IMG/VR virus record: IMGVR_UViG_3300027759_000119
Span: 1 to 52,723 of that record
Source of the DNA: a virus
Taxonomy: Duplodnaviria; Caudoviricetes
Direction: 5' to 3' (one strand)
DNA length: 52,723 nucleotides
Positions within the stretch are counted from its first letter, which is position 1. Every line of letters begins with the position of its first letter. Positions 28,609 through 52,723 of the stretch are shown one piece after another. A model generated the notes under the pieces. It had not been told where the DNA came from. It made no database searches and worked only from the letters and a program-made list of their open reading frames with translations. The position numbers and the translations under genes are program-made.

Positions 28609-28615
28609 AAAGACC

Positions 28616-28768
28616 ATGTCAAACACAGCACCAAAACAGGCAACCGAAGCACAAAAAACTGCACCACAGGCCCGCCGCCCAAACGAAACCGGTACAATTA
28701 GTGTGCAAGCGCACATGCGAATTTTTGATCCAAAAACTCAGAAAACTTACGTGGAGGGGCGAGCATGA
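28616..28768 (+). CDS. Small 50-aa hypothetical virion protein (missed by the ORF track)
   Basis: MSNTAPKQATEAQKTAPQARRPNETGTISVQAHMRIFDPKTQKTYVEGRA*. It fills the gap, follows a late promoter and overlaps the next gene by ATGA. Confidence 0.75.
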   Translation: MSNTAPKQATEAQKTAPQARRPNETGTISVQAHMRIFDPKTQKTYVEGRA

Positions 28769-29370: not shown

Positions 29371-29373
29371 ATA
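29366..29373 (+). promoter_or_regulatory. Late promoter, exact T4 consensus TATAAATA
   Basis: TATAAATA about 21 nt upstream of the tail fibre ATG at 29395. Confidence 0.75.
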
Positions 29374-32182: not shown

Positions 32183-32212
32183 AAAGGGGCAACAGCCCCT
32201 TTACTTTTCTTT
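32183..32212 (+). terminator. Rho-independent terminator ending the late structural block
   Basis: AAAGGGGC-AACA-GCCCCTTT hairpin followed by a T-rich tract (ACTTTTCTTT). Confidence 0.85.
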
Positions 32213-32228
32213 GCTTTCCCTGTATAAT
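32200..32228 (+). promoter_or_regulatory. Sigma70-type promoter for the enzyme island
   Basis: TTTACT-17 nt-TATAAT. The -10 box ends 5 nt before the ATG at 32234 and there is no Shine-Dalgarno, which suggests a leaderless transcript. Confidence 0.6.
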
Positions 32229-32233: not shown

Positions 32234-32542
32234 ATGAATACTGATGCCTTGGTTGCTCACGCACGAGCAAGATTTGATCATGCAGCCGCACGCCGGGTGC
32301 TAAAAGAAAAATACGAAGCACGAATGGTGTTTGCCCACGGGGGTGGGATGTGGCGAGCAGGACCAGAATTACTGACTGTGCTGTTGGCCTGCGCACAAGA
32401 CAAGGATGTTGTGATACTAGACCTGTATGAGACTCCGGTGCAGATCACGGTAACAGACTTGTTTGCTAAGGCGCACGAGCGTTGGCAAGAACAAATGAAT
32501 GCATGGCAGGTGGAATGGCAAGAACTAAACAAAAAACGCTGA
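32234..32542 (+). CDS. Hypothetical protein (102 aa), first gene of the enzyme island
   Basis: Clean ORF downstream of the promoter. Its stop overlaps the next gene. Confidence 0.7.
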   Translation: MNTDALVAHARARFDHAAARRVLKEKYEARMVFAHGGGMWRAGPELLTVLLACAQDKDVVILDLYETPVQITVTDLFAKAHERWQEQMNAWQVEWQELNKKR

Positions 32543-33333
32543 GTCAAGGTGTGTTAATCTTTGCTTTCAACAATGAAGCAACAGATTACATTGCCATGGC
32601 TGCATGGTCGGCTAAAAACATTCGCAGGCATTTGAACTTGCCCGTGGCTGTGGTCACAGACAATCCTGCGGCTGCCGCACAGCACAAATTTGAACACATC
32701 ATTGCCACTGTAGCAGACACTGGTGGTACAAGACACTTTGCGGATTACAATGCCAACGTGACTTGGCACAATGCCGGACGTATCAATGCCTATGAACTGT
32801 CACCATTTGACCAAACCTTAGTACTGGATGCTGACTATGTGATAGCCAGTGATCGATTATTGGAAGTACTAACAATACCACAACAGTTTGCAGCCTTCAA
32901 AGATGGATTTGACCCCAGCAGTACGACCATGCTTGAAACATTTGGTGCGTACGATATGCCCATGTGGTGGGCCACCGTAATGATGTTCCGACGTGGCAAT
33001 ATCAGCCAATACATATTTGATTCAATGCAAATGATACGCAACAACTGGCAGCACTATCGAGACTTGTATGGCATACATCAAAGCAACTATCGCAATGACT
33101 ATGCCCTGAGTATTGCTCTAGGCTTGGTAGCAGGGGCTGAACAATCAGTGCATGACATATTTTTTCCCATGCTCAATGTCATGCCAGATCATGGATTGAC
33201 TTGGGTGGAACAAGATCATTATGAAATTGAATACACCAATACTGAAGGTAGACGGAAAACTTTGAGTTGGGCTGGATTAGACTTTCATGCCATGTGCAAA
33301 AAACACCTGGAGGTGATAGTTGCAGCCCATTGA
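32515..33333 (+). CDS. GT-A fold glycosyltransferase, GT8-like (start uncertain: 32482, 32515 or 32539)
   Basis: GVLIFAFN..DYIAMA..SA..IR..LPVAVVTD and YELSPFDQTLVLDADY (DxD motif), followed by RNDYALSIA. Confidence 0.7.
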   Translation: MARTKQKTLSQGVLIFAFNNEATDYIAMAAWSAKNIRRHLNLPVAVVTDNPAAAAQHKFEHIIATVADTGGTRHFADYNANVTWHNAGRINAYELSPFDQTLVLDADYVIASDRLLEVLTIPQQFAAFKDGFDPSSTTMLETFGAYDMPMWWATVMMFRRGNISQYIFDSMQMIRNNWQHYRDLYGIHQSNYRNDYALSIALGLVAGAEQSVHDIFFPMLNVMPDHGLTWVEQDHYEIEYTNTEGRRKTLSWAGLDFHAMCKKHLEVIVAAH

Positions 33334-34087
33334 CGAACAAGGTTATGTGATTGTTGCAGTCAACAGCGACACTGTGGATTATTTGGACTGTGCTAAAACT
33401 CTGGCCAAGACCATACGCTACTGGGATCCATCAGCACGAATCTGTTTGATCACAGATAGCTCTTATACAGATCCCTTTTACGATCACTACAGACAACTTG
33501 TGCCACAGGAGAATCCTTATGCCAATGATGCACAACTGTTCAAGCTCACACCATTTCGTGAAACTATCAAACTAGAAGCAGACATGTTTGTTGTATCACC
33601 TATCTCTCATTGGTGGGATCAGTTTAGACACAGAGATGTTGTAGTATCAACTGGTTGTAGAGATTGGCAAGACAACGTCAGCACAGCAAGAAACTATCGC
33701 CGTGTGTTTGATGCCAACAACTTGCCCGATGTTTACAATGCCATTACTTACTGGCGGCGCAGTGAAACTGCCCGAGAGTTTTTTGGCTGGGTAGGCAACA
33801 TATTTGCCAATTGGGCAGAGTTTCGAAAACTCATAAAGTTTCCTGATGAAACACCGTCTACTGATCTTGTGTATGCCATGGCAGCAGAGATCATGGGTCG
33901 GGATCGTGTGACCATGCCATTCAGCACATATCCAAAAATAGTGCATATGAAACGACACATAACAGGAACTGCCACTGAAGCCTGGACCAAGGAACTAGTT
34001 TGGGAATATCAAGACATGCGCCTGCGTATACAAACTGTGGCGCAGACAGGTGCGTTTCATTACAATGTCAAAGAATGGCGAGCATGA
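33320..34087 (+). CDS. GT-A fold glycosyltransferase-like paralogue (GT8-like, ExD variant)
   Basis: GYVIVAVN..DYLDCA..LA..IR..ICLITD and LTPFRETIKLEADM align with the preceding gene. TTG start after GGAGG. Confidence 0.65.
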   Translation: MQPIDEQGYVIVAVNSDTVDYLDCAKTLAKTIRYWDPSARICLITDSSYTDPFYDHYRQLVPQENPYANDAQLFKLTPFRETIKLEADMFVVSPISHWWDQFRHRDVVVSTGCRDWQDNVSTARNYRRVFDANNLPDVYNAITYWRRSETAREFFGWVGNIFANWAEFRKLIKFPDETPSTDLVYAMAAEIMGRDRVTMPFSTYPKIVHMKRHITGTATEAWTKELVWEYQDMRLRIQTVAQTGAFHYNVKEWRA

Positions 34088-34419
34088 CACCCGAAGATTT
34101 TTGGTCAATACTGCACAATATACCAGATCCCAAACCAGTGTTTTATCGCTTGTATCATGATGGTCAAGGACACCCGCTATTCTACAGCATGGAGGATCAG
34201 CCTGGTACATACATTGAGATTGACCAAGAGACTTTTGCTCATAACGCCATGAATGTGCGTGTTCGCAATGGCAAGTTAGTAGAAGTAGTCTGGTCAATAA
34301 CTACAAAACTGGTCCCTGGCAACTCTGGATCCCCTTGTCATCCTGACAATGTCGCTGTAATCGTTGCTGAGGACCAACCTCATATTCGCTGGAGCAAGCA
34401 AACATATGAATCAAATTGA
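34084..34419 (+). CDS. Hypothetical protein (111 aa)
   Basis: The likely start MTPEDFWS at 34084 overlaps the upstream stop by ATGA. The ORF track extends it to 34000. Confidence 0.65.
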   Translation: MTPEDFWSILHNIPDPKPVFYRLYHDGQGHPLFYSMEDQPGTYIEIDQETFAHNAMNVRVRNGKLVEVVWSITTKLVPGNSGSPCHPDNVAVIVAEDQPHIRWSKQTYESN

Positions 34420-35332
34420 CATTGCAGACTTGGACTGCATATACTTGAGTTACGACGAGCCCGAAAAAGAAGAATTCTGGGTTCGAATCAAAAACATGGT
34501 GCCCTGGGCCACGCGAGTAGATGGCATCAAAGGATCAGATGCCGCACACAAGGCCGCGGCCGCTGCCAGCACCACTGAACGTTTTATACTCATTGACGGT
34601 GACAACATTCCTGATGCTGCCTTTTTCAATCAAACCTTGACATTCTCTACCCCTGACTGGGAACAAGCGGTGTTTCGTTGGCGAGCAAGAAATCACATCA
34701 ATGGCTTAATGTACGGCAATGGCGGATTGAGTTCATGGACACGTGAGTTTGTGTTCAACATGCGCACACACGAAGCCACAGACGGACGTGCAGAAACTGA
34801 AGTGGAGTTTTGTTTTGATCCCTTGTATTGGGCCATGTATGACTGTTACTCAACCACATATCCCAATGGATCTGCATTTCAGGCCTGGCGTGCCGGCTTC
34901 CGGGAAGGGGTAAAAATGTGCTTGAATAAAGGCGCACGACCCACAGTGGAAGAGTTTCAACAACAGGTGCATCAACGTAACTTGGATCATTTGACCATAT
35001 GGCATAACATTGGTGCTGATGTCAACAATGGACCCTGGGCCATAGCTGGCGCCAGACAGGGCACATACATGACCATGCTCACAAACTGGGATCATCGTGA
35101 AGTGCAAGATTTTGATGCCTTGGCAGAAATATGGAACACAGTTAAAGATGCAGAACCAAGATTGTTGGGCGGGCGTGTAGCAGATGAGTTGCATGGTCAG
35201 TTGGACTTGCCCATGGCCATCTTTGAAGGTGAACAAAGCCGATTCTTCAAACAACATTACCGATCAAACTGGTCGAACCGTGGCATCATGGTGAGAGAGA
35301 TTGATGTGATCCGCCAACAAGAAGGCTGGTAA
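34406..35332 (+). CDS. GT-A/GT2-like glycosyltransferase of phage type
   Basis: DCIYLSYDEP, RVDGIKGSDAAHKAAA, FILIDGDN (DxD), NGLMYGNGG and AWRAGFREGVKM. Start at MNQID after a GGAG. Confidence 0.65.
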   Translation: MNQIDIADLDCIYLSYDEPEKEEFWVRIKNMVPWATRVDGIKGSDAAHKAAAAASTTERFILIDGDNIPDAAFFNQTLTFSTPDWEQAVFRWRARNHINGLMYGNGGLSSWTREFVFNMRTHEATDGRAETEVEFCFDPLYWAMYDCYSTTYPNGSAFQAWRAGFREGVKMCLNKGARPTVEEFQQQVHQRNLDHLTIWHNIGADVNNGPWAIAGARQGTYMTMLTNWDHREVQDFDALAEIWNTVKDAEPRLLGGRVADELHGQLDLPMAIFEGEQSRFFKQHYRSNWSNRGIMVREIDVIRQQEGW

Positions 35333-36729
35333 TGAACAAAGGTGATGAGTTAGTAGGAACCAAAAGCAAGTTCTTGAACTCTGCGGAACACATGAAAGAG
35401 CAATTGGGTCCTGCACTTTGTCTGGCCAAATGGAAGCAAGTGAGTTTGCATCTGACAACAGGTCTCAACAATAGTTGTTATCATCCGCCGTTGCATCCTA
35501 TTGATCCCGAAACAATAAAGATCGATCCTTCTGCACTACACAACACTGGGTTTAAAAAAACACAACGGAAAATCATGCTCAAGCAAGAGCAGCCCTCAGA
35601 ATGCTCTTACTGTTGGAACATGGAGAACGAAGGTAAGTTAAGTGACCGACACTATCGTTCAGGTGAGCCTTGGGCCGTAGCGGATTTTGAAAAGATAAAG
35701 AATAGCACAGGAGAAGAAAATGTCATTCCCAGTTATGTTGAAGTTAATTTTAATCACGCTTGCAATCTGCGGTGTAGTTATTGCAGCCCTCAGTTTAGTA
35801 GTTCATGGGCAGATGAAGTCGCTAGACATGGAGCATATCCTACCTTGGTGCCTCATAATGCTCCTGAGCATTTTGCTGGCAGCCGTGGTCCTATTCCCGT
35901 TCGAGAATCAAACCCCTATGTTGACGCCTTCTGGGCCTGGTGGCCAGACCTGTATCCTCACCTAGAACATTTTCGCATGACTGGTGGTGAGCCACTCATG
36001 GATAAAAATACCTATCGTGTGTTTGACTATGTACTGGAGAATCCCAGCCCCAAGTTACATTTGAATGTCACAAGCAACTTTTCAGTAGATGAAAAGTCAT
36101 GGCAAAAGTATTTGAGTTATGTCAAACAAATATGTGATGGCCGTATTGAACATTTCATGCAGTATGTGAGTCTGGATGGCTGGGGAGAACAGGCAGAATA
36201 CATGCGCAATGGACTAGACTTTGATCTGTTGTGGGATCGAGTAAACCAGTTCCTCACAGAAGTGCCCAACTACTCAAGTCTTACGTTTATTATCACAATG
36301 AACAATTTGAGTGTGACCAGTTTGGACAAACTGTTTGCTGGCATCTTGGGCTTGAGAAAAGTATACAGCAACACTTATCAACGTGTGTGGTTTGACACAC
36401 CGGTGTTGCGCGAGCCAGCGTGGCAAAGCCTACAAATCTTGCCCGAAAGTTACGCAGAGAAATTGGAATGGTTGTGGGCCTGGATGGTACGACAGATTGA
36501 AACAGAAGAAGTACCGTTTAAAGGATTTAAAGACTATGAACTGCATAGACTGGACCGTGACATCGCCTGGATGAGATCGGCACAGTTGACAGATCACAGT
36601 CGTGCAAAAGCAGACTTTTATCGTTTCTTCAGTGAACATGATCGTCGTCGCGGCACAGACTTCTTAAAGACATTTCCAGAGATGCGGTCATGGTGGGAGG
36701 AGTGTGCGTATCATGCTAGGCAATCGTAA
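35332..36729 (+). CDS. Radical SAM enzyme 1 with N-terminal twitch/SPASM-like domain
   Basis: CNLRCSYC (CxxxCxxC) and TGGEP. N-terminal CLAKW..NSCYHP..CSYCW. Confidence 0.92.
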   Translation: MNKGDELVGTKSKFLNSAEHMKEQLGPALCLAKWKQVSLHLTTGLNNSCYHPPLHPIDPETIKIDPSALHNTGFKKTQRKIMLKQEQPSECSYCWNMENEGKLSDRHYRSGEPWAVADFEKIKNSTGEENVIPSYVEVNFNHACNLRCSYCSPQFSSSWADEVARHGAYPTLVPHNAPEHFAGSRGPIPVRESNPYVDAFWAWWPDLYPHLEHFRMTGGEPLMDKNTYRVFDYVLENPSPKLHLNVTSNFSVDEKSWQKYLSYVKQICDGRIEHFMQYVSLDGWGEQAEYMRNGLDFDLLWDRVNQFLTEVPNYSSLTFIITMNNLSVTSLDKLFAGILGLRKVYSNTYQRVWFDTPVLREPAWQSLQILPESYAEKLEWLWAWMVRQIETEEVPFKGFKDYELHRLDRDIAWMRSAQLTDHSRAKADFYRFFSEHDRRRGTDFLKTFPEMRSWWEECAYHARQS

Positions 36730-37816
36730 AATCATTGTGGACGAGTGGGCCGAAGTATGGGACTTGCTCAAGCCCTATGCTGATGGCAGTTTCTGGCAGT
36801 GGTCAGATGTTGTACTTGATCCCAACAACGTGTATATTGTTGGACGTGTGATACTAAAAAACAACTGGACAGCAATAACGGAATGGGCCCAACAGTACCC
36901 GAGCCGTATAGTATTTTCCAATCCTGCCGAGGGCAGTGAAACCATACTGTTACAACTCACACGCCTGCGCATCAAAGAACAAGTTCGCCGAGGTGAAATT
37001 TTACTACTGACATCTGGGAACTTAGAACCAGGCTGGAATTATTGTAAAACCGACTGCTACTTCTCCAATATTGTAGAATACTTGGAAAACTTACGTGCGC
37101 ACGAGTCTTACCCTGACGTGTATCACAAACAAAACAAGCCATATGACTTTCTATTCCTAAACGGACGACTGCGTCCACATCGCAAGTATTTGATAGATGC
37201 CATGCGTGATCGACAGTTATTGAATCGAGCACTGTGGACCAATCTCAATGACCGTGTGGAAATGGCCTGGAGTAGTAGTCTACAAACTGACAACTCTGAA
37301 CCCATACGATTGTTGCCGCTGCAATACGAAATTGATCGTGCTTTACCCAATATGAGCACAGTGCCCACAGGATTTGTAAAACATCATTTGTTTGACAATA
37401 CCTGGGGCGATGCTGAAATCAATCCTGCTGCCTACATTGACACCTACTTCAGTGTGGTAACAGAAACCATATTTGATTACCCGTATACGTTTCGTACAGA
37501 AAAGATCTGGAAGCCCATGATCATGGGCCATCCGTTTGTGGCCGCTGCCAATCGTGGATACTATAAGGATTTACACTCAGCAGGATTCCAAACATTTGGA
37601 AATCTAATCGACGAAAGTTTTGATCAGATAGACGATCCACGAGATCGTGCCAACAGAATAGTTGACGTGGTAGCAGATATATGTTATAATGGTGCTGCCA
37701 GTTTCTTGGAGTCAGCCAGATCCGTTTGTAAATACAACTATCAACAACTTCGCGAACACAATCGTCGTGAACGTGCAGAACTACCCAAACGACTGGCCCA
37801 ATACATCAATGAATGA
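36713..37816 (+). CDS. Glycosyltransferase-like protein, paralogue A (GT10/GT-B-like TEK motif)
   Basis: FLFLNGRLRPHR and FSVVTET..RTEKIWKPMIMGHPF..GFQTF..IDESFD. Start at ATG 36713 after GGAGGAG. Confidence 0.5.
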   Translation: MLGNRKIIVDEWAEVWDLLKPYADGSFWQWSDVVLDPNNVYIVGRVILKNNWTAITEWAQQYPSRIVFSNPAEGSETILLQLTRLRIKEQVRRGEILLLTSGNLEPGWNYCKTDCYFSNIVEYLENLRAHESYPDVYHKQNKPYDFLFLNGRLRPHRKYLIDAMRDRQLLNRALWTNLNDRVEMAWSSSLQTDNSEPIRLLPLQYEIDRALPNMSTVPTGFVKHHLFDNTWGDAEINPAAYIDTYFSVVTETIFDYPYTFRTEKIWKPMIMGHPFVAAANRGYYKDLHSAGFQTFGNLIDESFDQIDDPRDRANRIVDVVADICYNGAASFLESARSVCKYNYQQLREHNRRERAELPKRLAQYINE

Positions 37817-39152
37817 TTTAGAATTTAAACAACAGGTCTTGGACCCGTTATCCACAAGTTTTTGTGCAGCGAAGTGGTACAATGCTACCATTTGGTTAGG
37901 AAGTGGGCAGACCACAAGTTGCCATCACCCGCCAGCTCATTTGATTGACGTTGATAAAGTCAATAACAACTCTAGGCTGCTGCACAATACTGATCAGAAA
38001 AAAGAAGACCGGCGTAAAATGTTAGCCGGCAAACGTCCAGCAGGCTGTGAATACTGCTGGAAGATTGAAGACATGCACACTGATGCAGTATCAGACCGTG
38101 TGTATAAAAGTAAAATTTATCCCATAGAGGCCTTACATGAAGCAGTTAAAACTCCCGTTGAACATGATGTCAATCTTAGAACTCTTGAAATCAGTTTCGA
38201 TAGGACTTGTCAATTTGCTTGTTCTTATTGCAATCCTGCTTTTAGTTCCACTTGGGTCAATGATATACGCCGGCATGGACCCTACAACGGGTTGGTTAGC
38301 GATGGTAGGAACCATTTTACTCACACTCATGATAGTAGTCAACTTTATAAATTCGGTGAGACTAATCCTTACGTGGAAGCCTTCTTTGACTGGTGGGAAC
38401 GAGATCTCCACAGAACACTGCAAGAACTCCGAATAACTGGTGGCGAACCACTAATGTCAGGATATACCTGGAAACTGATTGAATGGTTTAAGACCAACCA
38501 AGGACGTAGCAGTACCCGATTGGCAATCAATTCGAATCTTGGCATTGACATGGACAAGATCAAAGACTTTGCTGTGGCCATTGCCACATTGCCCAAGGTG
38601 GATTTGTATACCTCAATGGAAGCTACATGGGCGCAAGCAGAATACATTAGAGATGGACTAGACTATGATCAATGGTTGAACAATGTGTTGTTTTTGTTGG
38701 AAGGCAGATTTGTTAGTGCCGTGCATGTGATGTGTACCATCAATGCATTGTGCTTGGATAGTATTGTGGATCATCTCAACATGATGCTGAGTTTGAAACA
38801 ACGCTATGGACGTGACAAAATAAACTTTACATTGAATATCTTGCGTTTCCCCAGTTTTCAAAGCGCCCTAGTATTGCCTGATCACATACGCAATGGTTAT
38901 CGTTTGCAGTTGGAATCTTGGTTGTTTCACAATAGAGAAAATCCTTGTTTGCATGAACATGAAGTCAATCATGTGCAACGACTGATTGATTACTTGGATG
39001 TGGTAAAAACTCCACACAGTGAAGCATTTGACATGCCCAAGTTATTGAATGACTTTAAACAGTTCTATACGCAATATGACCAACGCAGAGACAAAGTCTT
39101 TGCCAGGGCATTTCCTAACTTAACAGAATGGTATGACTCAATACAAGTATAA
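37809..39152 (+). CDS. Radical SAM enzyme 2 with N-terminal twitch domain
   Basis: CQFACSYC and TGGEP. N-terminal FCAAKW..TSCHHP..CEYCW. The probable start is MNDLEF at 37809. Confidence 0.92.
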   Translation: MNDLEFKQQVLDPLSTSFCAAKWYNATIWLGSGQTTSCHHPPAHLIDVDKVNNNSRLLHNTDQKKEDRRKMLAGKRPAGCEYCWKIEDMHTDAVSDRVYKSKIYPIEALHEAVKTPVEHDVNLRTLEISFDRTCQFACSYCNPAFSSTWVNDIRRHGPYNGLVSDGRNHFTHTHDSSQLYKFGETNPYVEAFFDWWERDLHRTLQELRITGGEPLMSGYTWKLIEWFKTNQGRSSTRLAINSNLGIDMDKIKDFAVAIATLPKVDLYTSMEATWAQAEYIRDGLDYDQWLNNVLFLLEGRFVSAVHVMCTINALCLDSIVDHLNMMLSLKQRYGRDKINFTLNILRFPSFQSALVLPDHIRNGYRLQLESWLFHNRENPCLHEHEVNHVQRLIDYLDVVKTPHSEAFDMPKLLNDFKQFYTQYDQRRDKVFARAFPNLTEWYDSIQV

Positions 39153-45276: not shown

Positions 45277-45374
45277 AATGGTTACGCAGAATTTGGGATA
45301 GAATTACCCTAGAAATACGCTATAGGAAAAAACTAAAAGAACTTCGCAAACGAGATCCATTCATCTATAAATGA
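45273..45374 (+). CDS. 33-aa basic peptide (missed by the ORF track), coupled to the carbamoyltransferase
   Basis: MKWLRRIWDRITLEIRYRKKLKELRKRDPFIYK*. AAGGAG RBS at 45261-45266 and ATGA overlaps at both ends. Confidence 0.8.
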   Translation: MKWLRRIWDRITLEIRYRKKLKELRKRDPFIYK

Positions 45375-46855
45375 ATATCTTAGGAATCTCAGCTGGCTTT
45401 CATGATGCTGCCGCCACAGTGATCAGCTCACGAGGTGACATTGTATTTGCTGGACATGCAGAACGCTACAGCAAGAAGAAGAATGATGCTGACATCAACC
45501 TTGGCCTAATCTGGGACGCATGTGACCAAAATCTTGCCGTTGATCATGTGGCTTACTATGAGACGCCATGGAAAAAACAACTGCGCCAGTGGTACAGCGG
45601 TCAAGGCATAGAGTGGAACAAGTTGACCACAAAACAAATACTCAAGCAACAACTCAAAGGATTTTTTCCAACAGCATCACACAGTTGCCACAGTCATCAC
45701 CTTAGCCATGCAGCCGGTGGATTTCAGACCAGCCCATATGACCGTGCCACGGTGGTGGTAATTGATGCCATAGGCGAGTGGGATACAATCACAATCTGGG
45801 GAGCAGAATATGATCGACAAGGACGAGCAAGATATCAGCGATTGTGGGGACAACAATATCCGCACAGCCTGGGTCTCTTTTATAGTGCAATTACTCAGCG
45901 TGTGGGCCTACACCCACTAGACGAAGAATACATTACCATGGGCATGAGTGCTTATGGCAGTGATCATTACAATCGTGTGATGGAATCAGTGTTGATTCGT
46001 GACCCATACGAAATAGAGTTTGGACAAAACTTGCACACCGGAGTCACGGATGATTTCATGGGCGGTCTCAGCAATGAAGATATTGCTGCCAGTGCTCAAC
46101 GATTGTTAGAACGCCTGATAGGCAATGTCATGCGTAGGGCCAGAGATTTCAAATGGAGCACTAATCTTGTGTACCAAGGTGGTGTTGCACTCAACTGTTT
46201 GGCCAATAGACGATTAGGAAATTACTTTGAAAACATCTGGATCATGCCCTGTCCTGGAGATGCAGGGTCAAGTCTTGGAGCCGCTGCCTTTGCTTATGGT
46301 AAACGTCTGCATTGGCACAATGCGTACCTTGGCTATAATATCCCTGGTGCTTATCCTGTTGATCGTATTGTCTGTGGTTTACTTGACACTGGCATTGTTG
46401 GAGTGGCTAACGGTCGTGCTGAATTTGGCCCAAGGGCGCTGGGCAACCGAAGCTTACTTGCTGACCCCCGTGGCGCAAAAATTAAGGATCAAGTAAATGC
46501 AATCAAACGACGACAAAAGTTTAGACCCTTTGCACCAGTTATTTTAGAAGAACATGTCGGCGAGTATTTTGCTATGCCTCGTGGATGGAGTGACAGTAGG
46601 TATATGCAAACAGTTTCTCTTTGCAAGAATCCTGACTTATTTCCTGCTATTGTTCATGTTGATCAAACTAGTCGTGTGCAAACTGTACCAAAAGATGGCA
46701 GTGGCATAAGACAGTTATTAGAAGCATGGCATGCACAAACTGGTTGCCCTATGCTGTTAAACACCAGCCTCAACATACGTGGTGAGCCCATGGTCAACGA
46801 TCGTTCAGATGCTGATCGTTTTGAAATGCTATATGGAGTAACAGTATATTCATGA
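45371..46855 (+). CDS. O-carbamoyltransferase, NodU/CmcH/TobZ family
   Basis: ILGISAGFHDAAA, ERYSKKK, HHLSHAA, VIDAIGE, GGVALNCLAN, PGDAGSSLGAA, GRAEFGPRALGNRSLLADP, KRRQKFRPFAP and LLNTSLNIRGEPMV. Confidence 0.96.
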   Translation: MNILGISAGFHDAAATVISSRGDIVFAGHAERYSKKKNDADINLGLIWDACDQNLAVDHVAYYETPWKKQLRQWYSGQGIEWNKLTTKQILKQQLKGFFPTASHSCHSHHLSHAAGGFQTSPYDRATVVVIDAIGEWDTITIWGAEYDRQGRARYQRLWGQQYPHSLGLFYSAITQRVGLHPLDEEYITMGMSAYGSDHYNRVMESVLIRDPYEIEFGQNLHTGVTDDFMGGLSNEDIAASAQRLLERLIGNVMRRARDFKWSTNLVYQGGVALNCLANRRLGNYFENIWIMPCPGDAGSSLGAAAFAYGKRLHWHNAYLGYNIPGAYPVDRIVCGLLDTGIVGVANGRAEFGPRALGNRSLLADPRGAKIKDQVNAIKRRQKFRPFAPVILEEHVGEYFAMPRGWSDSRYMQTVSLCKNPDLFPAIVHVDQTSRVQTVPKDGSGIRQLLEAWHAQTGCPMLLNTSLNIRGEPMVNDRSDADRFEMLYGVTVYS

Positions 46856-47079
46856 AGTCAGCACAAGAACATTTAAAAGATTCACAAATGGGTTACTGGG
46901 CCCATATGGCACACAGTTTTAAACAAAGCAACAGGCTAGTAGACATTGCTGTCAAAAGTTATATACATGGCATATTCCCTTGGTTCTTCGCCAATCGTGG
47001 ACCCGTGGGTGTGTTCAAGATCTACCGAGAAATCCGCAACATGCGCCACATTAGAAAAATACTAGACCGTCAAAGGTAA
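46852..47079 (+). CDS. Small His-rich hypothetical protein (DUF6356-like)
   Basis: EHL....GYWAHM......IHGIFPW.F pattern, with an ATGA overlap to the carbamoyltransferase. Confidence 0.55.
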   Translation: MKSAQEHLKDSQMGYWAHMAHSFKQSNRLVDIAVKSYIHGIFPWFFANRGPVGVFKIYREIRNMRHIRKILDRQR

Positions 47080-48107
47080 GTCTCTAATCCGCCGCGTCTG
47101 CGGATGTCTTGAGTGCAACAGCTGATACCGCCATCCCAGAAATAACTGTGTCGCAATTCACTGATGATGGGTTCTATCCTGTGCCGACGGCAGTAGTCAA
47201 ACACTTCTTTGTTGTATGCTGAGAATATAACATGCGACTCGTCCAACACAAGGCAGTTGACGTCAAACACAGTCTCAGCAACAAAGCCAGTCCACTTGGT
47301 CAAGTAAGTATTCACAAACTCTGTGAACTCTGGTGTGGGTGTTTGTCCTTGCACATACCATGCACCTGGTGATTGTTCATACTTGAATTTGCCCACTTCC
47401 ATGGCAGCCCAAATACTACTATCCCAAATTTTACAAACGTCCCAGCCTGGAAAGTCTGCAGCCAAATTCAAGTTAACATCATGTTTGCTTGACAATAACA
47501 CACCAGGCTTTAGTATAGCAAACACAGCATCACCGTGACCGTCTGTGATGGCTTCGTGTATGCGATACTCAGTACCTAGTACATTGTCCACAATCCAACG
47601 AGTTTGATCTGGACGCAAAAAGTCTGAGTTGTCAAAAAATACATCGCGTCCTACACGCACAATGCAACTTGCTGATGCTTGATTGAGAACGCAATTCTTG
47701 TCCCAGCCTGTGGGACCATGTGGATTGATCACTGTGCCACCGGCCTGTTCATATTCTTTACACAGTCCATCTAATTCTTGCATGGCCAATACACGCAATA
47801 GTCGATCACCCAGTGTGATCTGCCAGTCTCGTGGAGTCAATGGTGGCAATGGTGCACCATTGCCGGTTAGTTGTTCTTGTTGAAAACGGTGTTTGTTGGG
47901 CAGGTCAGGTCTTCGTACTCGCGCACCATAAGTCTCAATGGTTTTTTGCAAATTAGATAAATCTTCCTCAGTTTCATATAATATCTGTTGTAGTTGATTC
48001 CGCACTTGCGGATTTTTAATAAAGTCAAAGTAGTCTGGGGTGTATGCACGGCCCACAATGACTTCCTCTAAGGGCTGCCAACTGGTGTATGAGTTAATGG
48101 GATTCAT
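47070..48107 (-). CDS. Amidinotransferase (glycine/inosamine-phosphate amidinotransferase, StrB1-like pentein)
   Basis: INSYTSWQPLEEVIVGRA, PRD, GHGD and the C-terminal GGISCCTQDIRR carrying the catalytic Cys. Confidence 0.88.
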   Translation of the reverse strand: MNPINSYTSWQPLEEVIVGRAYTPDYFDFIKNPQVRNQLQQILYETEEDLSNLQKTIETYGARVRRPDLPNKHRFQQEQLTGNGAPLPPLTPRDWQITLGDRLLRVLAMQELDGLCKEYEQAGGTVINPHGPTGWDKNCVLNQASASCIVRVGRDVFFDNSDFLRPDQTRWIVDNVLGTEYRIHEAITDGHGDAVFAILKPGVLLSSKHDVNLNLAADFPGWDVCKIWDSSIWAAMEVGKFKYEQSPGAWYVQGQTPTPEFTEFVNTYLTKWTGFVAETVFDVNCLVLDESHVIFSAYNKEVFDYCRRHRIEPIISELRHSYFWDGGISCCTQDIRRRGGLETYL

Positions 48108-49251
48108 TGATTTCCTTGATTAGGGTATTTAAACGGTCCTTCTTGCTGGCCAGAAATAACTGTTGGTTATGTTGTATATCTGCACGACACAATTCAAACA
48201 GTTGTGGTAAATCTGGTTGAGTAAAAAAGATTGATCGAGTCAATGCCATCCATCGCTGTGTGGCATTGGGTTCTAGATCGTAACTGTTGTCCAGTATGTT
48301 ATCAAACACACGATATCCTAAATCACGTAGCACTTGTAAACTGCCTGCAGGCCCTGCTACAAAAAACATCTGTCCATGCTTGATGGGTTTGAATGTTTTT
48401 TCAGTTAAAAATGTACCACTGTGCTGAATATCAAAATGTGTTTCCATCACAATATTACAATAACTGTTGACATGATATTTGGGTATCAAGGTGCTGTGAT
48501 TGTTGCGTTGATCAAAATCCAATTCATCACTGATGTAAGGTGCAGACTGTAAGAATTTTTCAGTTCGTGTGCGCAGTCCTGCAATGTCATCAATTTCAAT
48601 GGCACAGTCTGCGTCGACAAATTCACCTGACTCACAGTAACTCCAGTATGACTGAGTCAATATGCCATTGTGTTGCAAGTCTGCCATGGCCAACGCACGC
48701 CACGATTTATGCAATCTGTTGAGCACAGTAAAGTCACGCTCTCTTGGTTCACGGTGTATCTTTAGTGCCGGACTTGACCGATTGCGTTGATAATACCAAA
48801 GTTCAAAGTCTGCAAAGTACACAAAATTTTCCAACTGTTTGGCAGCAGTATTACCACTGACAAATTTGTAACAGTCGTTGCGCAAATTGTGCTTGGTGCA
48901 TAATTCGTCTAACCTAGATTTGATATGGAAAGGGTTGTCTCCTTCATGGTAGTAAAATAGCACACGCACGTCATCAAAGAATAATCCAGCACGTATGCGT
49001 TTAGGCAAGAGTTCAAAGTAATCAATGCTGAAATCGAAGAACCCCAATCCCACAGGGTATAATGCATTAGCCGGCCACTCTGAATCAATGTCTACGATGT
49101 TTAGTTCGACCCCATGAGCAACACAATACTCTTGCAGTCGCAAAGGCACAGTGTAAGGATAATGTTGATCAAAATCCTGGCTTGATGTCTGCGCCAAGGC
49201 AGGATATATCTTACCGTTGACTACGCGGTCCGCTATCAAATTCAATGTCAT
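48094..49251 (-). CDS. Glycosyltransferase-like protein, paralogue B (GT10/GT-B-like TEK motif)
   Basis: FTVLNRLHKSWR and NIVMET..FLTEKTFKPIKHGQMFFVAG..GSLQVLRDLGYRVF..LDNSYD. Confidence 0.5.
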   Translation of the reverse strand: MTLNLIADRVVNGKIYPALAQTSSQDFDQHYPYTVPLRLQEYCVAHGVELNIVDIDSEWPANALYPVGLGFFDFSIDYFELLPKRIRAGLFFDDVRVLFYYHEGDNPFHIKSRLDELCTKHNLRNDCYKFVSGNTAAKQLENFVYFADFELWYYQRNRSSPALKIHREPRERDFTVLNRLHKSWRALAMADLQHNGILTQSYWSYCESGEFVDADCAIEIDDIAGLRTRTEKFLQSAPYISDELDFDQRNNHSTLIPKYHVNSYCNIVMETHFDIQHSGTFLTEKTFKPIKHGQMFFVAGPAGSLQVLRDLGYRVFDNILDNSYDLEPNATQRWMALTRSIFFTQPDLPQLFELCRADIQHNQQLFLASKKDRLNTLIKEINESH

Positions 49252-50398
49252 TTAACATGTCCTGCAGTTCTTGCCATAATATCTGTTCAAAGCCGCCACC
49301 GTAAAAATGATTCCAATTGTGTCGAACAATGTCCCATGCGCTGTCAAATATGGCCTGACGATGTTCTCCTAATTCATCCAATAGTTTCAATGTGTGTGCG
49401 ATCTTCTCTATACGTTTTGAATCATCAGGTTCGTCATCATAACTTTCGTCCCACAGGTCGCCAAATGTTTTAAACCCATAACTGCGCAAGTATTTCAAAC
49501 TGCCCTGTGTGCCCACAATCACAAACGGCATGCCCAGGGCTATAGGCTTAAACGTCTTTTCGGTCAAGTGATGCCTACGTCCTGTGGCCACAGTCTCAGT
49601 AACCAAGTATAACAGGCTTTCAGCACTTTGGTCAAACAAACTGAGCCAACATGAATGCATGGGATGATCAAATTCTCCCTCAAAGTTCAATGGCAAGGAC
49701 TGCTCGGCAAACACAGTGTCAATGTCTGGATATTTTAATTTAAGTGGCTGAACAGCATCCAGTATGGAAACATTTTCTGCAGGGCACGTTTCTGGGCACG
49801 ATACATGATTATCAGTCATGCCCAGTTTGAATATCCAATACAGCATTTCCAATCGGTGCTGTCGTTCTCCTGCCACAATGCGATTAGGTGCTAGAAAAGT
49901 CTTTGTGATAGTTCTTTGTTGCCAAGGAGTAATCAAAAAAGTACGGTCATAACCACGATACCAATCCAATGCTGCCCAGCCATGGAAGAAATAGTAATAA
50001 TGCTGCCAACCAAATTTTTCACACACTGCGCTCACAGTATCGCTGTCACGTTCGCTGGTGATGATTGCACCTATTGTTCGATTGATTTTTAGGGATTTAC
50101 TGTAACCAGAATCCATAGCCATTTGATTTAATTGATTGCGTCGATCTATTACTTGGTGTAAGTCTTGATTGTTGGCAACTACTTGTTCAAATGTGGGCAT
50201 GTGTACGTTCAAATGAATAGGCTCTTGGTCCCACAATAGTGTATAATTGTGTTCAACTAAGTCGTCTCTGCCATAATTAACTAGACTGTCAGGATCTGTT
50301 CTACCAAAAGGTTCGCACCACCATAATCTCACTCCAGGATGATGCCGTTTAATCCAAGGCCAAATGGTGTTATCATAAATCTCATCTATTCTAAGCAT
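49211..50398 (-). CDS. Glycosyltransferase-like protein, paralogue C (GT10/GT-B-like TEK motif)
   Basis: FLAPNRIVAGERQHR and YLVTET..LTEKTFKPIALGMPFVIVG..GSLKYLRSYGFKTF..WDESYD. Confidence 0.5.
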   Translation of the reverse strand: MLRIDEIYDNTIWPWIKRHHPGVRLWWCEPFGRTDPDSLVNYGRDDLVEHNYTLLWDQEPIHLNVHMPTFEQVVANNQDLHQVIDRRNQLNQMAMDSGYSKSLKINRTIGAIITSERDSDTVSAVCEKFGWQHYYYFFHGWAALDWYRGYDRTFLITPWQQRTITKTFLAPNRIVAGERQHRLEMLYWIFKLGMTDNHVSCPETCPAENVSILDAVQPLKLKYPDIDTVFAEQSLPLNFEGEFDHPMHSCWLSLFDQSAESLLYLVTETVATGRRHHLTEKTFKPIALGMPFVIVGTQGSLKYLRSYGFKTFGDLWDESYDDEPDDSKRIEKIAHTLKLLDELGEHRQAIFDSAWDIVRHNWNHFYGGGFEQILWQELQDMLNDIEFDSGPRSQR

Positions 50399-52403
50399 GT
50401 TTGACGTATTTTATTTCAGTGATGGGCGTAAGCCAAATTTGTTTCCACATGAGAGATCAGTGGATTCATTCCAGCATGCACAGAAGTTGAGTCGCACACG
50501 ATTTTTCTGGATTGTGCATTACTTAGCGGACTATGGGGACTGGGACTGGCTTTTTGAACCCCCACCATGGGAGGCTGATCAACGACATGTATGGACCAGT
50601 CAATGGCAACCTGATTCGGGCACATACCTTGTGCCACGTGCCGGCTATGAACACACAAATTATCACACAGATCGCGTCATAACAAGATTGAGCAGTAGAG
50701 ACGGTTGGCGCATACCTCCAAACATAGATGCTGACAGTTTCGACTTCTCTTGGCATCCATTGCCCAGCGATCACTATCAACATCACTTTCCCACACAATG
50801 GCAGAGTGCAGGTGGACCTGTGTACAATTCAGGTGCTGATCAAATCAAAATGGAAACGTGCCAGCATGCAGTGGCACGATCCACCAAAAAGTGTTGGACT
50901 GTGCCTGCGGGAGTTGAACCTGTGGATCAGTCGTGGCATCCAAATCCGTTTGATCCTCCGTACATTTATCAGTTTGGTACGCAACATCAACGCACAGGAG
51001 GACCTACATACACGGTGCCTGGCGCAACAGAAGTAAAATATGTGGATCAAATACGTGCCACAACAAACCGAGTGGCCACAGCCATATACGAAATAGATCA
51101 CTTGTGTGGCTCAGTAGGGCAAATACCTGGAACCACACGGACTGTGCGTTACTTTGACAACTACAGAGACACACTAATACGCATTGCCAAGGGCATAGGC
51201 ACAGAACATGAGTTTGTTTGGATATGTAGCAGCATTTGTGATTACACTGGCTTTGACTTTTCATGGCATCCCGAACAATGGCAGGCCACCATGTTGCATG
51301 TGTTCAAGTCTGACAATGATCAAAAATTTGGAGATACATTCTTCATGCATGTGCCCACATTCGCTGCCAGAGCAGAAAAAAAAGAACTGTTGGAATGGTC
51401 GGATGTGAATTTTGTTGACATTAGTGTACCACGCAGGCCCATGCCAGTGATTGTACACAATGGTGATAGTCAAGTGGATGCAGTTAAAAACACTGAGTGG
51501 GCGGGCCCACTTGCCACGTTTACCAACCATGACTATGTGCCGGGTAATCTTGTGACTGTGCCACTATGGCGGCAAGACACCAAGACCATTGTGCCTGTTG
51601 GTTCAGGTGCAGGCACAGTAGTTGTTCCCAAAGTAGCTGTGCCTTACATAAACACACAGTTGTATGACTATGCTCACATAGACCGCACACAACGTATTTT
51701 GAAAGATCCGCCCTTGGACATTGTGTTCATCAGCAACGGTGAAATAAATGCCGAAATTTACTTTGAACATTTGGCATACACAGCCCACGACGCAAATCAT
51801 AAGAATCTCATGCATCATGTGTCGGGTGTGAATGGTCGTGTGGCAGCATATCAAGCGGCTGCTAGACAAAGTACTACGCCTTGGTTCTTTGCTGTGTTTG
51901 CCAAACTAGAAGTCACTAGAGATTTTGACTGGTCCTGGCAACCGGATCGCATGCAACAACCCAAGCACTATATCTTTCATGCACACAATCCTGTGAACGG
52001 CTTGGTATATGGGCACCAGGCCATGATTGCTTACAACAAACAGCTGGTGTTGGACAACACAGGTGAAGGCCTAGACTTTACCTTGGACCAACCACATGAA
52101 GTTGTGCCCATTGTGTCGGGCACAGCCATGTATCATGATTCGGACTGGATGTGCTGGCGCACTGCATTTCGTGAAGTGCTCAAATTAAAAGCCAGTTTGC
52201 CTGATGTGGAAAGCGAGCACAGACTTAGAACTTGGCTTGGGGTAGATCGTAGTGATGGCGCATGGAGTCAGAAAGGCGCAGAGGACGCTGTGGAGTACTA
52301 CGACTCAGTCGGCGGCGACTTTGAGGCGCTGAAGAAAAGTTATGAGTGGTCTTGGTTGGCCACGTATGCGTTTGTCAAACGCAGTCTAACACCGAATCAA
52401 TAA
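50397..52403 (+). CDS. Multi-repeat GT2-like protein whose C-terminal domain is paralogous to 34406-35332 but lacks DxD
   Basis: Repeated FD(F/W)SW(H/Q)P motifs. C-terminal DIVFISNGE..VSGVNGRVAAYQAAA..NGLVYG..WRTAFREVLK. Confidence 0.6.
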   Translation: MFDVFYFSDGRKPNLFPHERSVDSFQHAQKLSRTRFFWIVHYLADYGDWDWLFEPPPWEADQRHVWTSQWQPDSGTYLVPRAGYEHTNYHTDRVITRLSSRDGWRIPPNIDADSFDFSWHPLPSDHYQHHFPTQWQSAGGPVYNSGADQIKMETCQHAVARSTKKCWTVPAGVEPVDQSWHPNPFDPPYIYQFGTQHQRTGGPTYTVPGATEVKYVDQIRATTNRVATAIYEIDHLCGSVGQIPGTTRTVRYFDNYRDTLIRIAKGIGTEHEFVWICSSICDYTGFDFSWHPEQWQATMLHVFKSDNDQKFGDTFFMHVPTFAARAEKKELLEWSDVNFVDISVPRRPMPVIVHNGDSQVDAVKNTEWAGPLATFTNHDYVPGNLVTVPLWRQDTKTIVPVGSGAGTVVVPKVAVPYINTQLYDYAHIDRTQRILKDPPLDIVFISNGEINAEIYFEHLAYTAHDANHKNLMHHVSGVNGRVAAYQAAARQSTTPWFFAVFAKLEVTRDFDWSWQPDRMQQPKHYIFHAHNPVNGLVYGHQAMIAYNKQLVLDNTGEGLDFTLDQPHEVVPIVSGTAMYHDSDWMCWRTAFREVLKLKASLPDVESEHRLRTWLGVDRSDGAWSQKGAEDAVEYYDSVGGDFEALKKSYEWSWLATYAFVKRSLTPNQ

Positions 52404-52723
52404 CATACTCAACTTCCAAGTCTGTTAGTTCAGGATAGATAGGTAGACTCAAACATCTACGTGCTAGACTACTGCCAGCACTGAGCAAGTCTGGTCCGGG
52501 ATAGTGTTGATATGCTGGCAACTCATGCATGGGTGTTGCATAATGCACTTTGGTCTCAACGCCACGCAAGGCAAGATTACGTTGTAGTATATCTCGTTTG
52601 TCTGTATGTATTACAAACTTGTGAAAGCAGTGTTGATCAAAGTTGGTGTCATCAATTAAACAAGTGATATCAGGATTTTGTTTCAACATCTCCATCCAGT
52701 GTTGAGCAATGGTGCGTCTACGT
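52375..52723 (-). CDS. DegT/DnrJ/EryC1/StrS family PLP-dependent sugar aminotransferase (C-terminal part; start lies beyond the window)
   Basis: The frame is open to the window edge: RRRTIAQHW..HKFVI..RDILQ..L..GVETKVHY..PMH..PAY..LSLPIYPELTDLEVEYVI. Confidence 0.9.
   Translation of the reverse strand, partial: RRRTIAQHWMEMLKQNPDITCLIDDTNFDQHCFHKFVIHTDKRDILQRNLALRGVETKVHYATPMHELPAYQHYPGPDLLSAGSSLARRCLSLPIYPELTDLEVEYVIDSVLDCV

Follow-up and report, generated by a model that had tools for sequence, protein, structure and literature searches.

The stretch analysed here (the window) is the whole of IMG/VR virus record IMGVR_UViG_3300027759_000119, a linear viral contig of 52,723 bp with an estimated completeness of about 15%. 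In its right part, enzyme genes stand close together from position 32234 up to the end of the window; this compact block, called the island below, may encode a soluble pathway that builds and tailors a glycan, perhaps on the phage's own virion proteins. The island holds 19 open reading frames (ORFs) of at least 100 amino acids (aa) and a possible ORF of 75 aa. The first 13 ORFs (32234-45276) are all on the plus strand, and all 12 of their junctions overlap or abut, with gaps from -128 to -1 nt. After 45276, a gap of 94 nt is followed by a carbamoyltransferase gene, three minus-strand ORFs, one plus-strand ORF and a minus-strand fragment at the window end.

A scan of a viral collection with the third radical S-adenosylmethionine (SAM) protein of the island, rS3, gave 226 relatives, and the best 80 of them (74-88% identity) were taken with 10-kb flanks; counts out of 80 loci refer to this set. 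The bit scores of radical SAM proteins refer to NF033640, the NCBIfam model 'twitch domain-containing radical SAM protein', whose curated cut-off is 170 bits. The features of the island, with the labels used below, are as follows (GT-A, GT-B and GT8 denote folds and a family of glycosyltransferases, GTs).

32183..32228, plus strand: boundary element with a terminator-like hairpin (32183-32202), a T-run and a sigma-70-like site TTTACT-17 nt-TATAAT (32200-32228)
32234..32542, plus strand: o102, 102 aa, the first island gene, with a homologue (at least 40% identity) in 56 of the 80 loci
32482..33333, plus strand: A, a GT8 (glycogenin)-like GT-A candidate by profile matches to glycogenins
33320..34087, plus strand: B, a paralogue of A (23% identical) and GT8-like GT-A candidate
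34084..34419, plus strand: C, about 111 aa, conserved in 69 of the 80 loci
34406..35332, plus strand: D, 308 aa, a GT-A-like candidate glycosyltransferase with DGD (DxD), by fold match and motif
35332..36729, plus strand: rS1, radical SAM protein, 312.6 bits, with CxxxCxxC, GGE and four twitch cysteines conserved
36704..37816, plus strand: E, GT-B-fold glycosyltransferase-like, by BLASTP to I (1e-12) and to H (8e-12), the fold by way of the H model
37809..39152, plus strand: rS2, radical SAM protein, 285.5 bits
39133..40395, plus strand: rS3, radical SAM protein, 388.5 bits, with Pfam SPASM at residues 32-97 (8.6e-11)
40392..41600, plus strand: rS4, radical SAM protein, 325.4 bits, with Pfam SPASM at residues 9-78 (1.8e-5)
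41590..42984, plus strand: rS5, radical SAM protein, 191.8 bits, the variable member
42981..44258, plus strand: rS6, radical SAM protein, 264.7 bits
44251..45276, plus strand: F, 341 aa, conserved, present in 71 of the 80 loci
45371..46855, plus strand: carbamoyltransferase of the NodU/CmcH/TobZ type (Pfam Carbam_trans_C 6.6e-48, Carbam_trans_N 1.1e-34)
46852..47079, plus strand: possible ORF of 75 aa from the ORF listing, beginning within the carbamoyltransferase stop codon and filling the 214-nt gap to the convergent amidinotransferase gene
47070..48107, minus strand: G, amidinotransferase of the StrB1/AGAT/HsvA/SxtG family, by family profile against PDB
48094..49251, minus strand: H, GT-B-fold glycosyltransferase-like, by AlphaFold model and Foldseek
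49211..50398, minus strand: I, GT-B-fold glycosyltransferase-like, by BLASTP to H (1.7e-12) and to E (1e-12)
50397..52403, plus strand: J, 668 aa, with a D-like C-terminal part of about 190 aa without DxD and an N-terminal part of about 440 aa with repeated 'SWHP' modules
52375..52723, minus strand: aminotransferase of the DegT/DnrJ/EryC1/StrS type, C-terminal 115 aa (Pfam DegT 5.1e-18), the gene being cut by the window end

An earlier reading of this DNA from its letters and ORF list (the original prediction) had described more than 20 kb of tightly overlapping enzyme genes directly after the tail-fibre genes, with six radical SAM enzymes, an aminotransferase, an amidinotransferase, a carbamoyltransferase and about seven GT-like genes. 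The compact block, the six radical SAM genes and the three other transferases were all recovered in our analysis. The count of GT-like genes fared less evenly, with three supported by fold (E, H and I), three weakly supported (A, B and D) and J, which holds only a D-like domain without DxD, uncertain. That the island runs past the window edge was confirmed in the complete relative G001, where a full DegT gene is followed by a short-chain dehydrogenase/reductase (SDR) gene, a 293-aa ORF weakly resembling the methyltransferase PrmC, and then ThyX and unrelated genes. From this gene order the island ends about 3 kb beyond the window edge; it spans about 24 kb, or about 7% of the genome.

All six radical SAM proteins scored above the NF033640 cut-off (191.8-388.5 bits), compared to none in 14 control genomes; Pfam detects the six weakly. 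They are old paralogues with 21-31% identity to one another. In 18 of 18 aligned radical SAM copies, residues C140, C144, C147, G202 and E204 (rS3 numbering) are invariant, and G203 is kept in at least 90%. Residues C32, C50, C93 and C96 of the N-terminal auxiliary-cluster domain are invariant or nearly so. We observed that this twitch/SPASM-type domain precedes the radical SAM core in the island proteins. The original prediction had likened the enzymes to BtrN, which our comparison does not support. Residues 6-74 of the radical SAM profile align with residues 186-257 of the BtrN twitch domain (E 5e-4), and outside this segment of about 70 residues the profile comparison found no likeness to BtrN. 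No close relative has a solved structure; the best matches of the core were 8vpo (an unnamed radical SAM protein, 2.5e-9), ChlB and SkfB, and the weak NCBIfam matches were to sactipeptide and ranthipeptide maturases. A literature search by name or accession found no functional study on the NF033640 family.

For rS2, the start at ATG 37809 fits the relatives better than the one at 37689, the upstream extension holding stop codons in relatives. An rS5 orthologue (at least 40% identity) was found in 8 of the 80 loci; there is none in the island of G001, and in that of the relative G005 it has a different place. Five complete relatives carry 6, 8, 9, 10 and 16 copies above the NF033640 cut-off. 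Ten of the copies in G005 lie outside the island, with no GT-like neighbours by local profiles. Some of these extra copies stand near replication and recombination genes (L103:4630-6207; L104:4922-6058 and 13578-14813; L105:4904-6052 and 12415-13515), as does the single extra copy of G001 (L109:4991-6121). Also, the cultured Vibrio phage K566 (255 kb; L102) has four distant twitch radical SAM genes (50-72 bits against the profiles of the island proteins) standing consecutively at about 161.5-168.3 kb, with no recognisable partner genes of the island type in this array.

The sugar-tailoring enzymes were identified with varying ease. The carbamoyltransferase scored 120.8 bits for Carbam_trans_N (cut-off 24) and 162.9 bits for Carbam_trans_C (cut-off 27). 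We rejected it as a NodU orthologue, at 129 bits against the NodU equivalog cut-off of 1000. The DegT fragment reached 65.9 bits (cut-off 19.8), and full-length orthologues with 200-326 bits are present in all five complete relatives. The DegT orthologue is closest to the PseC model, below its cut-off (146 versus 423.5 bits), and reached no equivalog cut-off. The SDR that follows DegT in G001 matches Pfam Epimerase (2e-44) and GDP_Man_Dehyd (6.5e-30); its nearest NCBIfam model is deoxythymidine-diphosphate (dTDP)-glucose 4,6-dehydratase, again below cut-off.

Protein G had no Pfam match at E<=0.01. With phmmer it matched AGAT, HsvA, StrB1 and SxtG in PDB (3e-14 to 4e-10), and a family profile matched the same enzymes over the full length, namely StrB1 (1bwd) at 4.6e-57, AGAT at 1.7e-49, HsvA at 9e-45 and SxtG at 3e-41. 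The nucleophile Cys (GGISCCT), the His-x-Asp (GHGD) and the PRD motif are conserved, and the Cys and His align with C407 and H303 of AGAT in 14 of 14 sequences. In AGAT these two are the catalytic nucleophile and His, and D254, which corresponds to D179 of StrB1, is the Asp of the catalytic triad.

An all-against-all BLASTP comparison placed the ORFs without a Pfam match into the groups {A, B}, {D, C-terminus of J} and {E, H, I}, with F, C and o102 remaining single. The group of E, H and I has no Pfam match, and its profile found no match among PDB sequences. Still, an AlphaFold model of H, made with 26 sequences, had a predicted local distance difference test score (pLDDT) of 87.4 and a predicted template-modelling score of 0.89. 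In a Foldseek search against PDB the model gave 21 matches at E<=1e-3, and all those listed at that level were GT-B enzymes (template-modelling, TM, scores of 0.29-0.44). The fold matches include SenB, SdgB, Asp1, the trehalose-phosphate, sucrose-phosphate, glycogen and starch synthases, VldE, CalG2 and the T4 alpha-glucosyltransferase. Against BFVD there were 52 matches at E<=1e-3, to uncharacterised phage proteins, a mimivirus protein and named viral GT1-type proteins. E, EK and K residues are invariant in the alignment of E, H and I. Among the named protein-atlas clusters, those nearest to the group are GT10 (score 0.79), and the 'TEK' motif presumably resembles that of GT10.

Proteins A and B belong to a large family, with 1763 representative clusters at E<=1e-3 among 1.8 billion representatives. 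A profile of 150 sequences gave 19 matches in PDB, all 19 to glycogenin-1 or glycogenin-2 (E 0.004-0.03), over the nucleotide-binding half and a DxD motif (LDADyv / LDADTLV). Among the profile members, weak Pfam matches were to Mannosyl_trans3 (2 of 150) and Nucleotid_trans (1 of 150). Protein A itself has no Pfam match, and 23 members of the family gave scattered chance matches at E<=5. B matches phrog_1903 at 1.4e-12. The true start of A is likely ATG 32515, as its relatives are 265-270 aa long.

The AlphaFold model of D had a pLDDT of 78.6. Its best PDB fold match was A64R (2p6w) of Paramecium bursaria chlorella virus 1 (PBCV-1), with E 7e-3, probability 0.98 and TM scores of 0.24-0.33 over about 130 residues; further matches were to GT-A or nucleotidyltransferase folds, and none reached E<=1e-3. 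The D profile found nothing meaningful among PDB sequences. The nearest named protein-atlas cluster had a score of 0.87, with Glycos_transf_2 in 21% of its members. More than 8000 proteins are homologous to D at E<=1e-3 (78-94% identity among the 120 matches listed), and no retrieved protein had a Pfam family; the search, capped at 8000 candidates, was filled by close relatives and yielded no remote link. The median identity of D to its relatives is 77%.

D is similar to residues 440-628 of J (BLASTP 7.7e-9). The DGD motif is conserved in 14 D orthologues and absent from four J-type domains, and J has VFA-K where D has DGD. J has no Pfam and no PDB match. Its N-terminal part (50397-51700, plus strand) contains three or four degenerate 'D-x-S-W-H-P ... 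G-G-P-x-Y' repeats. No Pfam, NCBIfam or PHROG match was found for o102, C or F, and the family profile of F gave nothing against PDB.

The island is inherited as a unit. We defined its core as A, B, C, D, rS1, E, rS2, rS3, rS4, rS6, F and the carbamoyltransferase. This 12-gene core is complete in 47 of the 80 loci, the remainder being truncated where a contig or the 10-kb flank stops. In all 47 complete loci the genes are colinear on one strand, with median identities of 45-82%, and thus the survey of synteny that the original prediction had proposed turned out in its favour. Orthologues of H, I and J were found in 28, 22 and 17 of the 80 loci, numbers partly limited by the flank, and some relatives have insertions between D and rS1. 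In all 51 loci with both elements, fewer than 400 nt separate the end of a fibre-like gene from the island downstream of it.

Among cultured phages, a D homologue was found only in Ralstonia phage RsoM2USA (one of 50,697 records, 39% identity). Its module o102-A-B-(gene)-D-rS1-D' stands directly after a homologue of a 595-aa virion protein and a giant protein weakly like the 5173-aa ORF of the window (both described below), and the six-gene core that the two phages have in common is about 39% identical. According to the available part of the RsoM2USA report, the giant protein was detected in virions by mass spectrometry (PMC8504454). A megablast search with 14.6 kb of the island gave no match in the 50,697 phage records.

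The sigma-70-like site of the boundary element ends 5 nt before the first island ORF, as found by a consensus scan in which neither site class was enriched across the region. By inspection, most of 43 distinct relatives have a hairpin and promoter arranged in this way ahead of their o102 homologue. The hairpin stems of relatives differ in sequence and keep their pairing. TATAAT is present in 24 of the 43, the variants TACAAT and TAAAAT being outside this count. With its own terminator and a sigma-70-like promoter, the island looks like a separate transcription unit. Upstream, motifs of ATAAATA type, which we take to resemble the T4 late promoter, were observed 15-30 nt before several structural genes (1238-1349, 9161-9177, 9553-9598, 28597-28620 and 29366-29373). 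The exact TATAAATA occurs once in the window, at 29366, before the gene of the 595-aa protein.

In the left half of the window, PHROG matches identify genes for baseplate hub and wedge proteins, a late sigma factor like gp55 and further virion proteins (a comparison that left out J, the 327-aa protein, rS1, rS3 and the carbamoyltransferase). A search with the 1158-aa wedge protein matched 100 records, and its identity to the proteins of Sinorhizobium phage Phosso, Agrobacterium phage Atu_ph07 and Rak2-like phages is 33-35%. The genomes of relatives that have direct terminal repeats measure 347-353 kb; therefore, the contig is a jumbo myovirus fragment, a piece of an Atu_ph07/Rak2-like freshwater phage of about 350 kb.

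The wedge gene is followed by the 5173-aa ORF, a 201-aa ORF, the 595-aa protein, a 327-aa protein rich in Ser, Thr, Gly and Ala, and then the island. The 5173-aa protein is encoded by a single ORF (13075-28596, plus strand) between the baseplate wedge gene and the fibre-like genes, and has a weak local likeness to the giant virion protein ORF361 of RsoM2USA (20-31% over 119-367 residues). The ends of the 595-aa protein (37-48% coverage) match proteins of jumbo phages, including PA5oct-like ones, annotated as 'virion structural protein' or 'baseplate wedge subunit and tail pin'; a PDB search gave no match. Ser and Thr make up 27% of the 327-aa protein, which is called a fibre from its position and composition alone. 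Four RNA runs contained 5-6% of the words sampled, in each case as contigs from relatives. In two libraries of lake RNA, contigs covered the structural genes more than the island, a contig depth that cannot rank genes and from which nothing is inferred.

Marker enzymes of the possible pathways were searched for in five complete or near-complete relatives and in the 14 control genomes. None of the five relatives had a ThyA-type dCMP/dUMP hydroxymethylase (PF00303; 10 of 14 controls positive), a C5-cytosine methylase (PF00145; 9 of 14), TGT/DpdA (PF01702; 14 of 14), an enzyme of the dehydroquinate (DHQ)-synthase/2-deoxy-scyllo-inosose (2-DOI)-synthase type (PF01761; 11 of 14), an inositol-1-phosphate synthase (PF01658; 6 of 14) or an NTP_transferase, i.e. 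a sugar nucleotidyltransferase (14 of 14). Tet/JBP (PF12851) was found in none of the five either, in a search whose control was silent too. A crude hydropathy scan revealed no membrane helix in the island proteins (the maximum over 19 residues was 1.65) and hence no candidate flippase, polyprenyl-phosphate transferase, polymerase or exporter among them. We read these absences together as evidence against DNA hypermodification, a cyclitol/aminoglycoside pathway or an exported envelope polymer, and for a soluble pathway that starts from nucleoside-diphosphate (NDP)-hexoses of the host. The original prediction had called the island aminoglycoside-like and its product a glycan or cyclitol; the cyclitol or aminoglycoside-like reading is not supported, as both kinds of cyclitol-forming enzyme are absent from the five relatives. 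Its alternative of hypermodified DNA bases is weakened as well, the known entry enzymes being absent from the five relatives. It had also named the flanks as the place where NDP-sugar enzymes might be told from hydroxymethylase or nucleotide kinase genes, and in complete relatives these hold an SDR of the NDP-sugar dehydratase type and none of the latter.

The radical SAM family is not restricted to these phages. A profile from a five-sequence alignment was used to scan a genome collection, and 73 loci not resembling the island phage were examined. Twitch radical SAM genes were present in at least two copies in 40 of the 73 loci (within at most 17 kb) and in at least three in 21, with a maximum of eight. 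Eleven of the loci also held an amidinotransferase, a carbamoyltransferase or a D-like, F-like or E/H/I-like gene; homologues of F, for example, stood beside the radical SAM genes in one locus at E<1e-10 (L177), with a weaker match in another (L180, 36 bits). Several of the 73 loci are on short assembly contigs that are possibly viral, and those on contigs of 0.9-3 Mb have radical SAM arrays with none of the partner families. The Pfam families seen most often among the 127 neighbours at 27 loci on contigs longer than 100 kb were Radical_SAM (9), Glycos_transf_2 (8) and Glyco_tranf_2_3 (6); DegT, GDP_Man_Dehyd and Epimerase came to 2 each, and the majority of neighbours carried none of these. 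On these gene contexts the NF033640 family leans to glycan settings while not being confined to them.

Three contigs of bacterial assemblies resemble the island more closely. L112 (183 kb) and L113 (148 kb), from a Haliscomenobacter assembly, have the same island order and an rS3 with 83% and 79% identity; they are either phage contigs binned with the bacterium or a hint to the host. L114 (42.7 kb), from a Legionellales assembly, has a more distant version of the island, in which six twitch radical SAM genes and a carbamoyltransferase are accompanied by a gene resembling D and another resembling F; its rS3 is about 52% identical. This contig suggests a second phage lineage that carries the same cassette.

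The explanation we favour, tentatively and at slightly less than an even balance, is that the island encodes a cytoplasmic pathway that builds and tailors a glycan, whose most probable acceptors would be, as the original prediction had also proposed, the phage's own virion proteins. Candidate acceptors are the fibre and tail-pin proteins encoded just upstream and possibly the 5173-aa protein. The data show the families or folds of the enzymes, their joint inheritance, their soluble nature and their constant place behind the fibre genes; we infer the order of steps, the sugar, the acceptor and all of the radical SAM chemistry in the following scheme. NDP-hexoses would be supplied by the host, as the phage relatives lack a sugar nucleotidyltransferase. 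The SDR, a 4,6-dehydratase-like enzyme, and the DegT aminotransferase may convert them into a sugar of the NDP-4-amino-4,6-dideoxyhexose type. The StrB1/AGAT-family enzyme G could then turn the amine into a guanidino group with arginine as the donor, and the NodU/TobZ-type enzyme might place a carbamoyl group on a hydroxyl or an amine. The three GT-B-fold and up to three GT-A-like transferases would assemble the sugars and attach them onto fibre, tail-pin or giant virion proteins. Lastly, the five conserved radical SAM enzymes and the variable one might carry out radical tailoring of the sugars or of the glycoprotein, by oxidation, epimerisation, deoxygenation or formation of C-C or C-X bonds.

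The enzyme identities, the co-inheritance, the sugar-nucleotide enzymes and the soluble nature of the proteins count for this scheme, as do three further points. The best PDB fold match of D is a glycosyltransferase of a capsid protein, and the fold matches of H include protein O-glycosyltransferases (SdgB). The proximity of fibre genes in the relatives and in RsoM2USA is a positional, if deep, argument for virion proteins as the acceptors. Glycos_transf_2, the commonest family besides radical SAM among the bacterial neighbours, argues for a glycan context. A more specific version, unlikely as it stands, would be a 4-guanidino, carbamoyl-decorated 6-deoxyhexose glycan on the tail-fibre proteins, with NF033640 as a new class of glycan-tailoring radical enzymes in which each paralogue performs a different C-H functionalisation on sugar-nucleotides or protein-bound sugars. 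If true, protein glycosylation with a guanidino-sugar would be seen for the first time, and NF033640 would gain its first assigned chemistry.

A number of observations weigh against a glycan pathway directed at the virion. The position beside the fibre genes is only circumstantial evidence for the acceptor. The island starts with a sigma-70-like site, not with the ATAAATA-type motif of the structural genes; judged from these motifs, it may be non-late and expressed before the virion proteins. In G, the position of the triad Asp is occupied by Ser or Val in 11 of 11 phage sequences (bacterial homologues have His in two cases and Asp in one), so its amidinotransferase activity is not assured. 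The GT-A assignments are weak at the E-values given above for A/B and D, the profiles of A/B and D, compared with each other, gave no sign of a relation (probability 0.5%), and F, C, o102 and the N-terminal 440 aa of J matched no family. The majority of the neighbours of the bacterial homologues have no glycan annotation. Finally, five of the G005 copies outside the island and the extra G001 copy adjoin Mre11-like, Rad50-like, endonuclease, RecA-like, primase, DnaB-like and DEAD-helicase genes with no sugar genes near, and therefore the NF033640 family need not act on sugars.

These last copies, with no GT-like gene in their vicinity, bear on the idea of a mixed island, in which a glycan is made while the twitch radical SAM enzymes modify phage proteins, of the virion or of replication, for example by crosslinks or epimerisations. 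The SPASM/twitch relatives found by profile are mostly modifiers of peptides or cofactors (SkfB, ChlB and the sactipeptide and ranthipeptide maturases), which is in line with such a role. However, general library scans of the island recognised no precursor-peptide-like gene and no recognition element of ribosomally synthesised and post-translationally modified peptides; the five conserved radical SAM genes are interleaved and co-inherited with the GT-B and sugar-tailoring genes; and in bacteria GT2 is the commonest recognisable neighbour, with partner genes of the island type at 11 of the 73 loci. We consider a mixed island, the main rival of the favoured explanation, fairly unlikely. It is improbable, too, that the product leaves the virion aside, as a soluble amino-, guanidino- or carbamoyl-sugar metabolite of antibiotic kind or as a modification of host-surface glycans during infection. 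An amidinotransferase, a carbamoyltransferase, a DegT enzyme and radical SAM enzymes are a typical set of secondary-metabolite sugar pathways, and the promoter of the island resembles a host promoter more than a late one. Three of these enzyme types carry the label 'antibiotic synthesis genes' in the available part of the report on cyanophage S-SCSM2R (PMC12801897). Against this stand the lack of a membrane-like segment, and hence of any candidate flippase, polymerase or exporter in the island, a number of transferase-like proteins (six or seven) above the usual need of a small-molecule pathway, a position after the fibre genes that is fixed across very distant phages, and the cyclitol-forming enzymes found in none of the five complete relatives.

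DNA hypermodification with a decorated sugar, as in the glucosylation of hydroxymethylcytosine in T-even phages, seems very unlikely to us. The known entry enzymes are missing from the relatives, as said above, with positive controls for all but Tet/JBP. The T4 DNA alpha-glucosyltransferase (1y6f, E 7.3e-4, rank 19) and a cyanophage 'DNA alpha-GT' (BFVD rank 47) are indeed among the fold matches of H, but far down lists led by protein and small-molecule glycosyltransferases. ThyX lies about 2 kb past the island in G001, and an early type of expression would suit DNA modification. We regard as highly improbable the reading in which there is no joint pathway at all, the region being a hyperplastic one of accumulated accessory genes and expanding paralogues. 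The variable presence of rS5, H, I and J (partly limited by the flanks), the radical SAM genes dispersed elsewhere in the relatives' genomes and the insertions between D and rS1 would fit it. On the other hand, the twelve core genes are strictly colinear in every complete locus and overlap one another, a six-gene core is common to RsoM2USA, and the recognisable enzymes are chemically coherent.

A glycan pathway acting on virion proteins would matter in several respects. The clade is abundant in metagenomes, as seen from the more than 8000 homologues of one island protein and the 226 related viral contigs. If the product coats fibres or tail pins, it bears on host recognition, on resistance to proteases and grazers and on receptor-binding chemistry. 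If the reading is true, it would give a function to NF033640 and to the D/J, F and E/H/I families, which have no Pfam model, and a possible biological route to guanidino-sugars.

The original prediction knew of no characterised phage pathway with this combination of enzymes, and the literature searched has yielded none; an uncharacterised cluster with part of it is in print. The cultured T4-like cyanomyovirus S-SCSM2R has 13 annotated glycosyltransferases, NDP-sugar epimerases, a DegT/AHBA_syn-type aminotransferase, an inosamine/glycine amidinotransferase and a radical SAM enzyme, which its authors, in the available part of the paper, read as host cell-wall modification and 'antibiotic synthesis' (BMC Biol 2025, PMC12801897). 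Its amidinotransferase is 28.7% identical to G and, in the GenBank region, stands beside KdsA/KdsB and 2-oxoglutarate (2OG)-Fe(II) oxygenases, not radical SAM arrays. A carbamoyltransferase, present in our island, is not among the genes reported in that part of the paper. A tblastn search with rS3 matched three records and no cyanophage, so the radical SAM gene of S-SCSM2R is not close to the island copies. A paper on a 'moraphage' concerns another lineage, as far as its available part tells (PMC12619734).

Aminoglycoside biosynthesis, streptomycin included, shares several families with the island: G belongs with StrB1 and AGAT, DegT with StrS, and the carbamoyltransferase with TobZ and NodU, and the twitch segment aligns with that of BtrN. 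The differences are substantial. The relatives have no cyclitol synthase, and the SDR of the NDP-hexose dehydratase type points to sugar nucleotides instead. In contrast to StrB1, G has its triad Asp replaced. The twitch domain is N-terminal in the island enzymes and C-terminal to the core in BtrN, and NF033640 is not BtrN's family. The T-even DNA glucosylation systems are similar in that their enzymes have the GT-B fold, are phage-encoded and soluble, and include the 1y6f structure matched by H, but the island stands among late structural genes and none of its five relatives has a hydroxymethylase, a C5-methylase or DpdA.

Tailed-phage particles were long considered unglycosylated, and few cases are known; glycosylation of a virus's own particle by virus-encoded enzymes is known in chloroviruses, giant viruses and mycobacteriophages. 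In chlorovirus PBCV-1, soluble cytoplasmic glycosyltransferases encoded by the virus decorate its own structural protein, and A64R, one of its proteins, is the best fold match of D. PBCV-1 differs in being a eukaryotic virus, and we know of no radical SAM enzymes, amidinotransferases or carbamoyltransferases in its capsid glycosylation. Glycosyltransferases encoded by mycobacteriophages reportedly act on capsid and tail-tube proteins (Freeman et al. 2023), a precedent for a tailed phage with a glycan coat. These phages have one to a few glycosyltransferases and use host sugars, compared to six or seven transferase-like genes, a sugar-tailoring set and six radical SAM enzymes in the island.

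The twitch radical SAM arrays of Bdellovibrionales and other bacterial assemblies belong to the same NF033640 family. What is new here, relative to all of these systems, is an array of five to six radical SAM genes with an N-terminal twitch domain fixed in a sugar island together with a carbamoyltransferase, three transferase-like families without a Pfam model, and the anchoring of the island after the fibre genes in distant jumbo phages.

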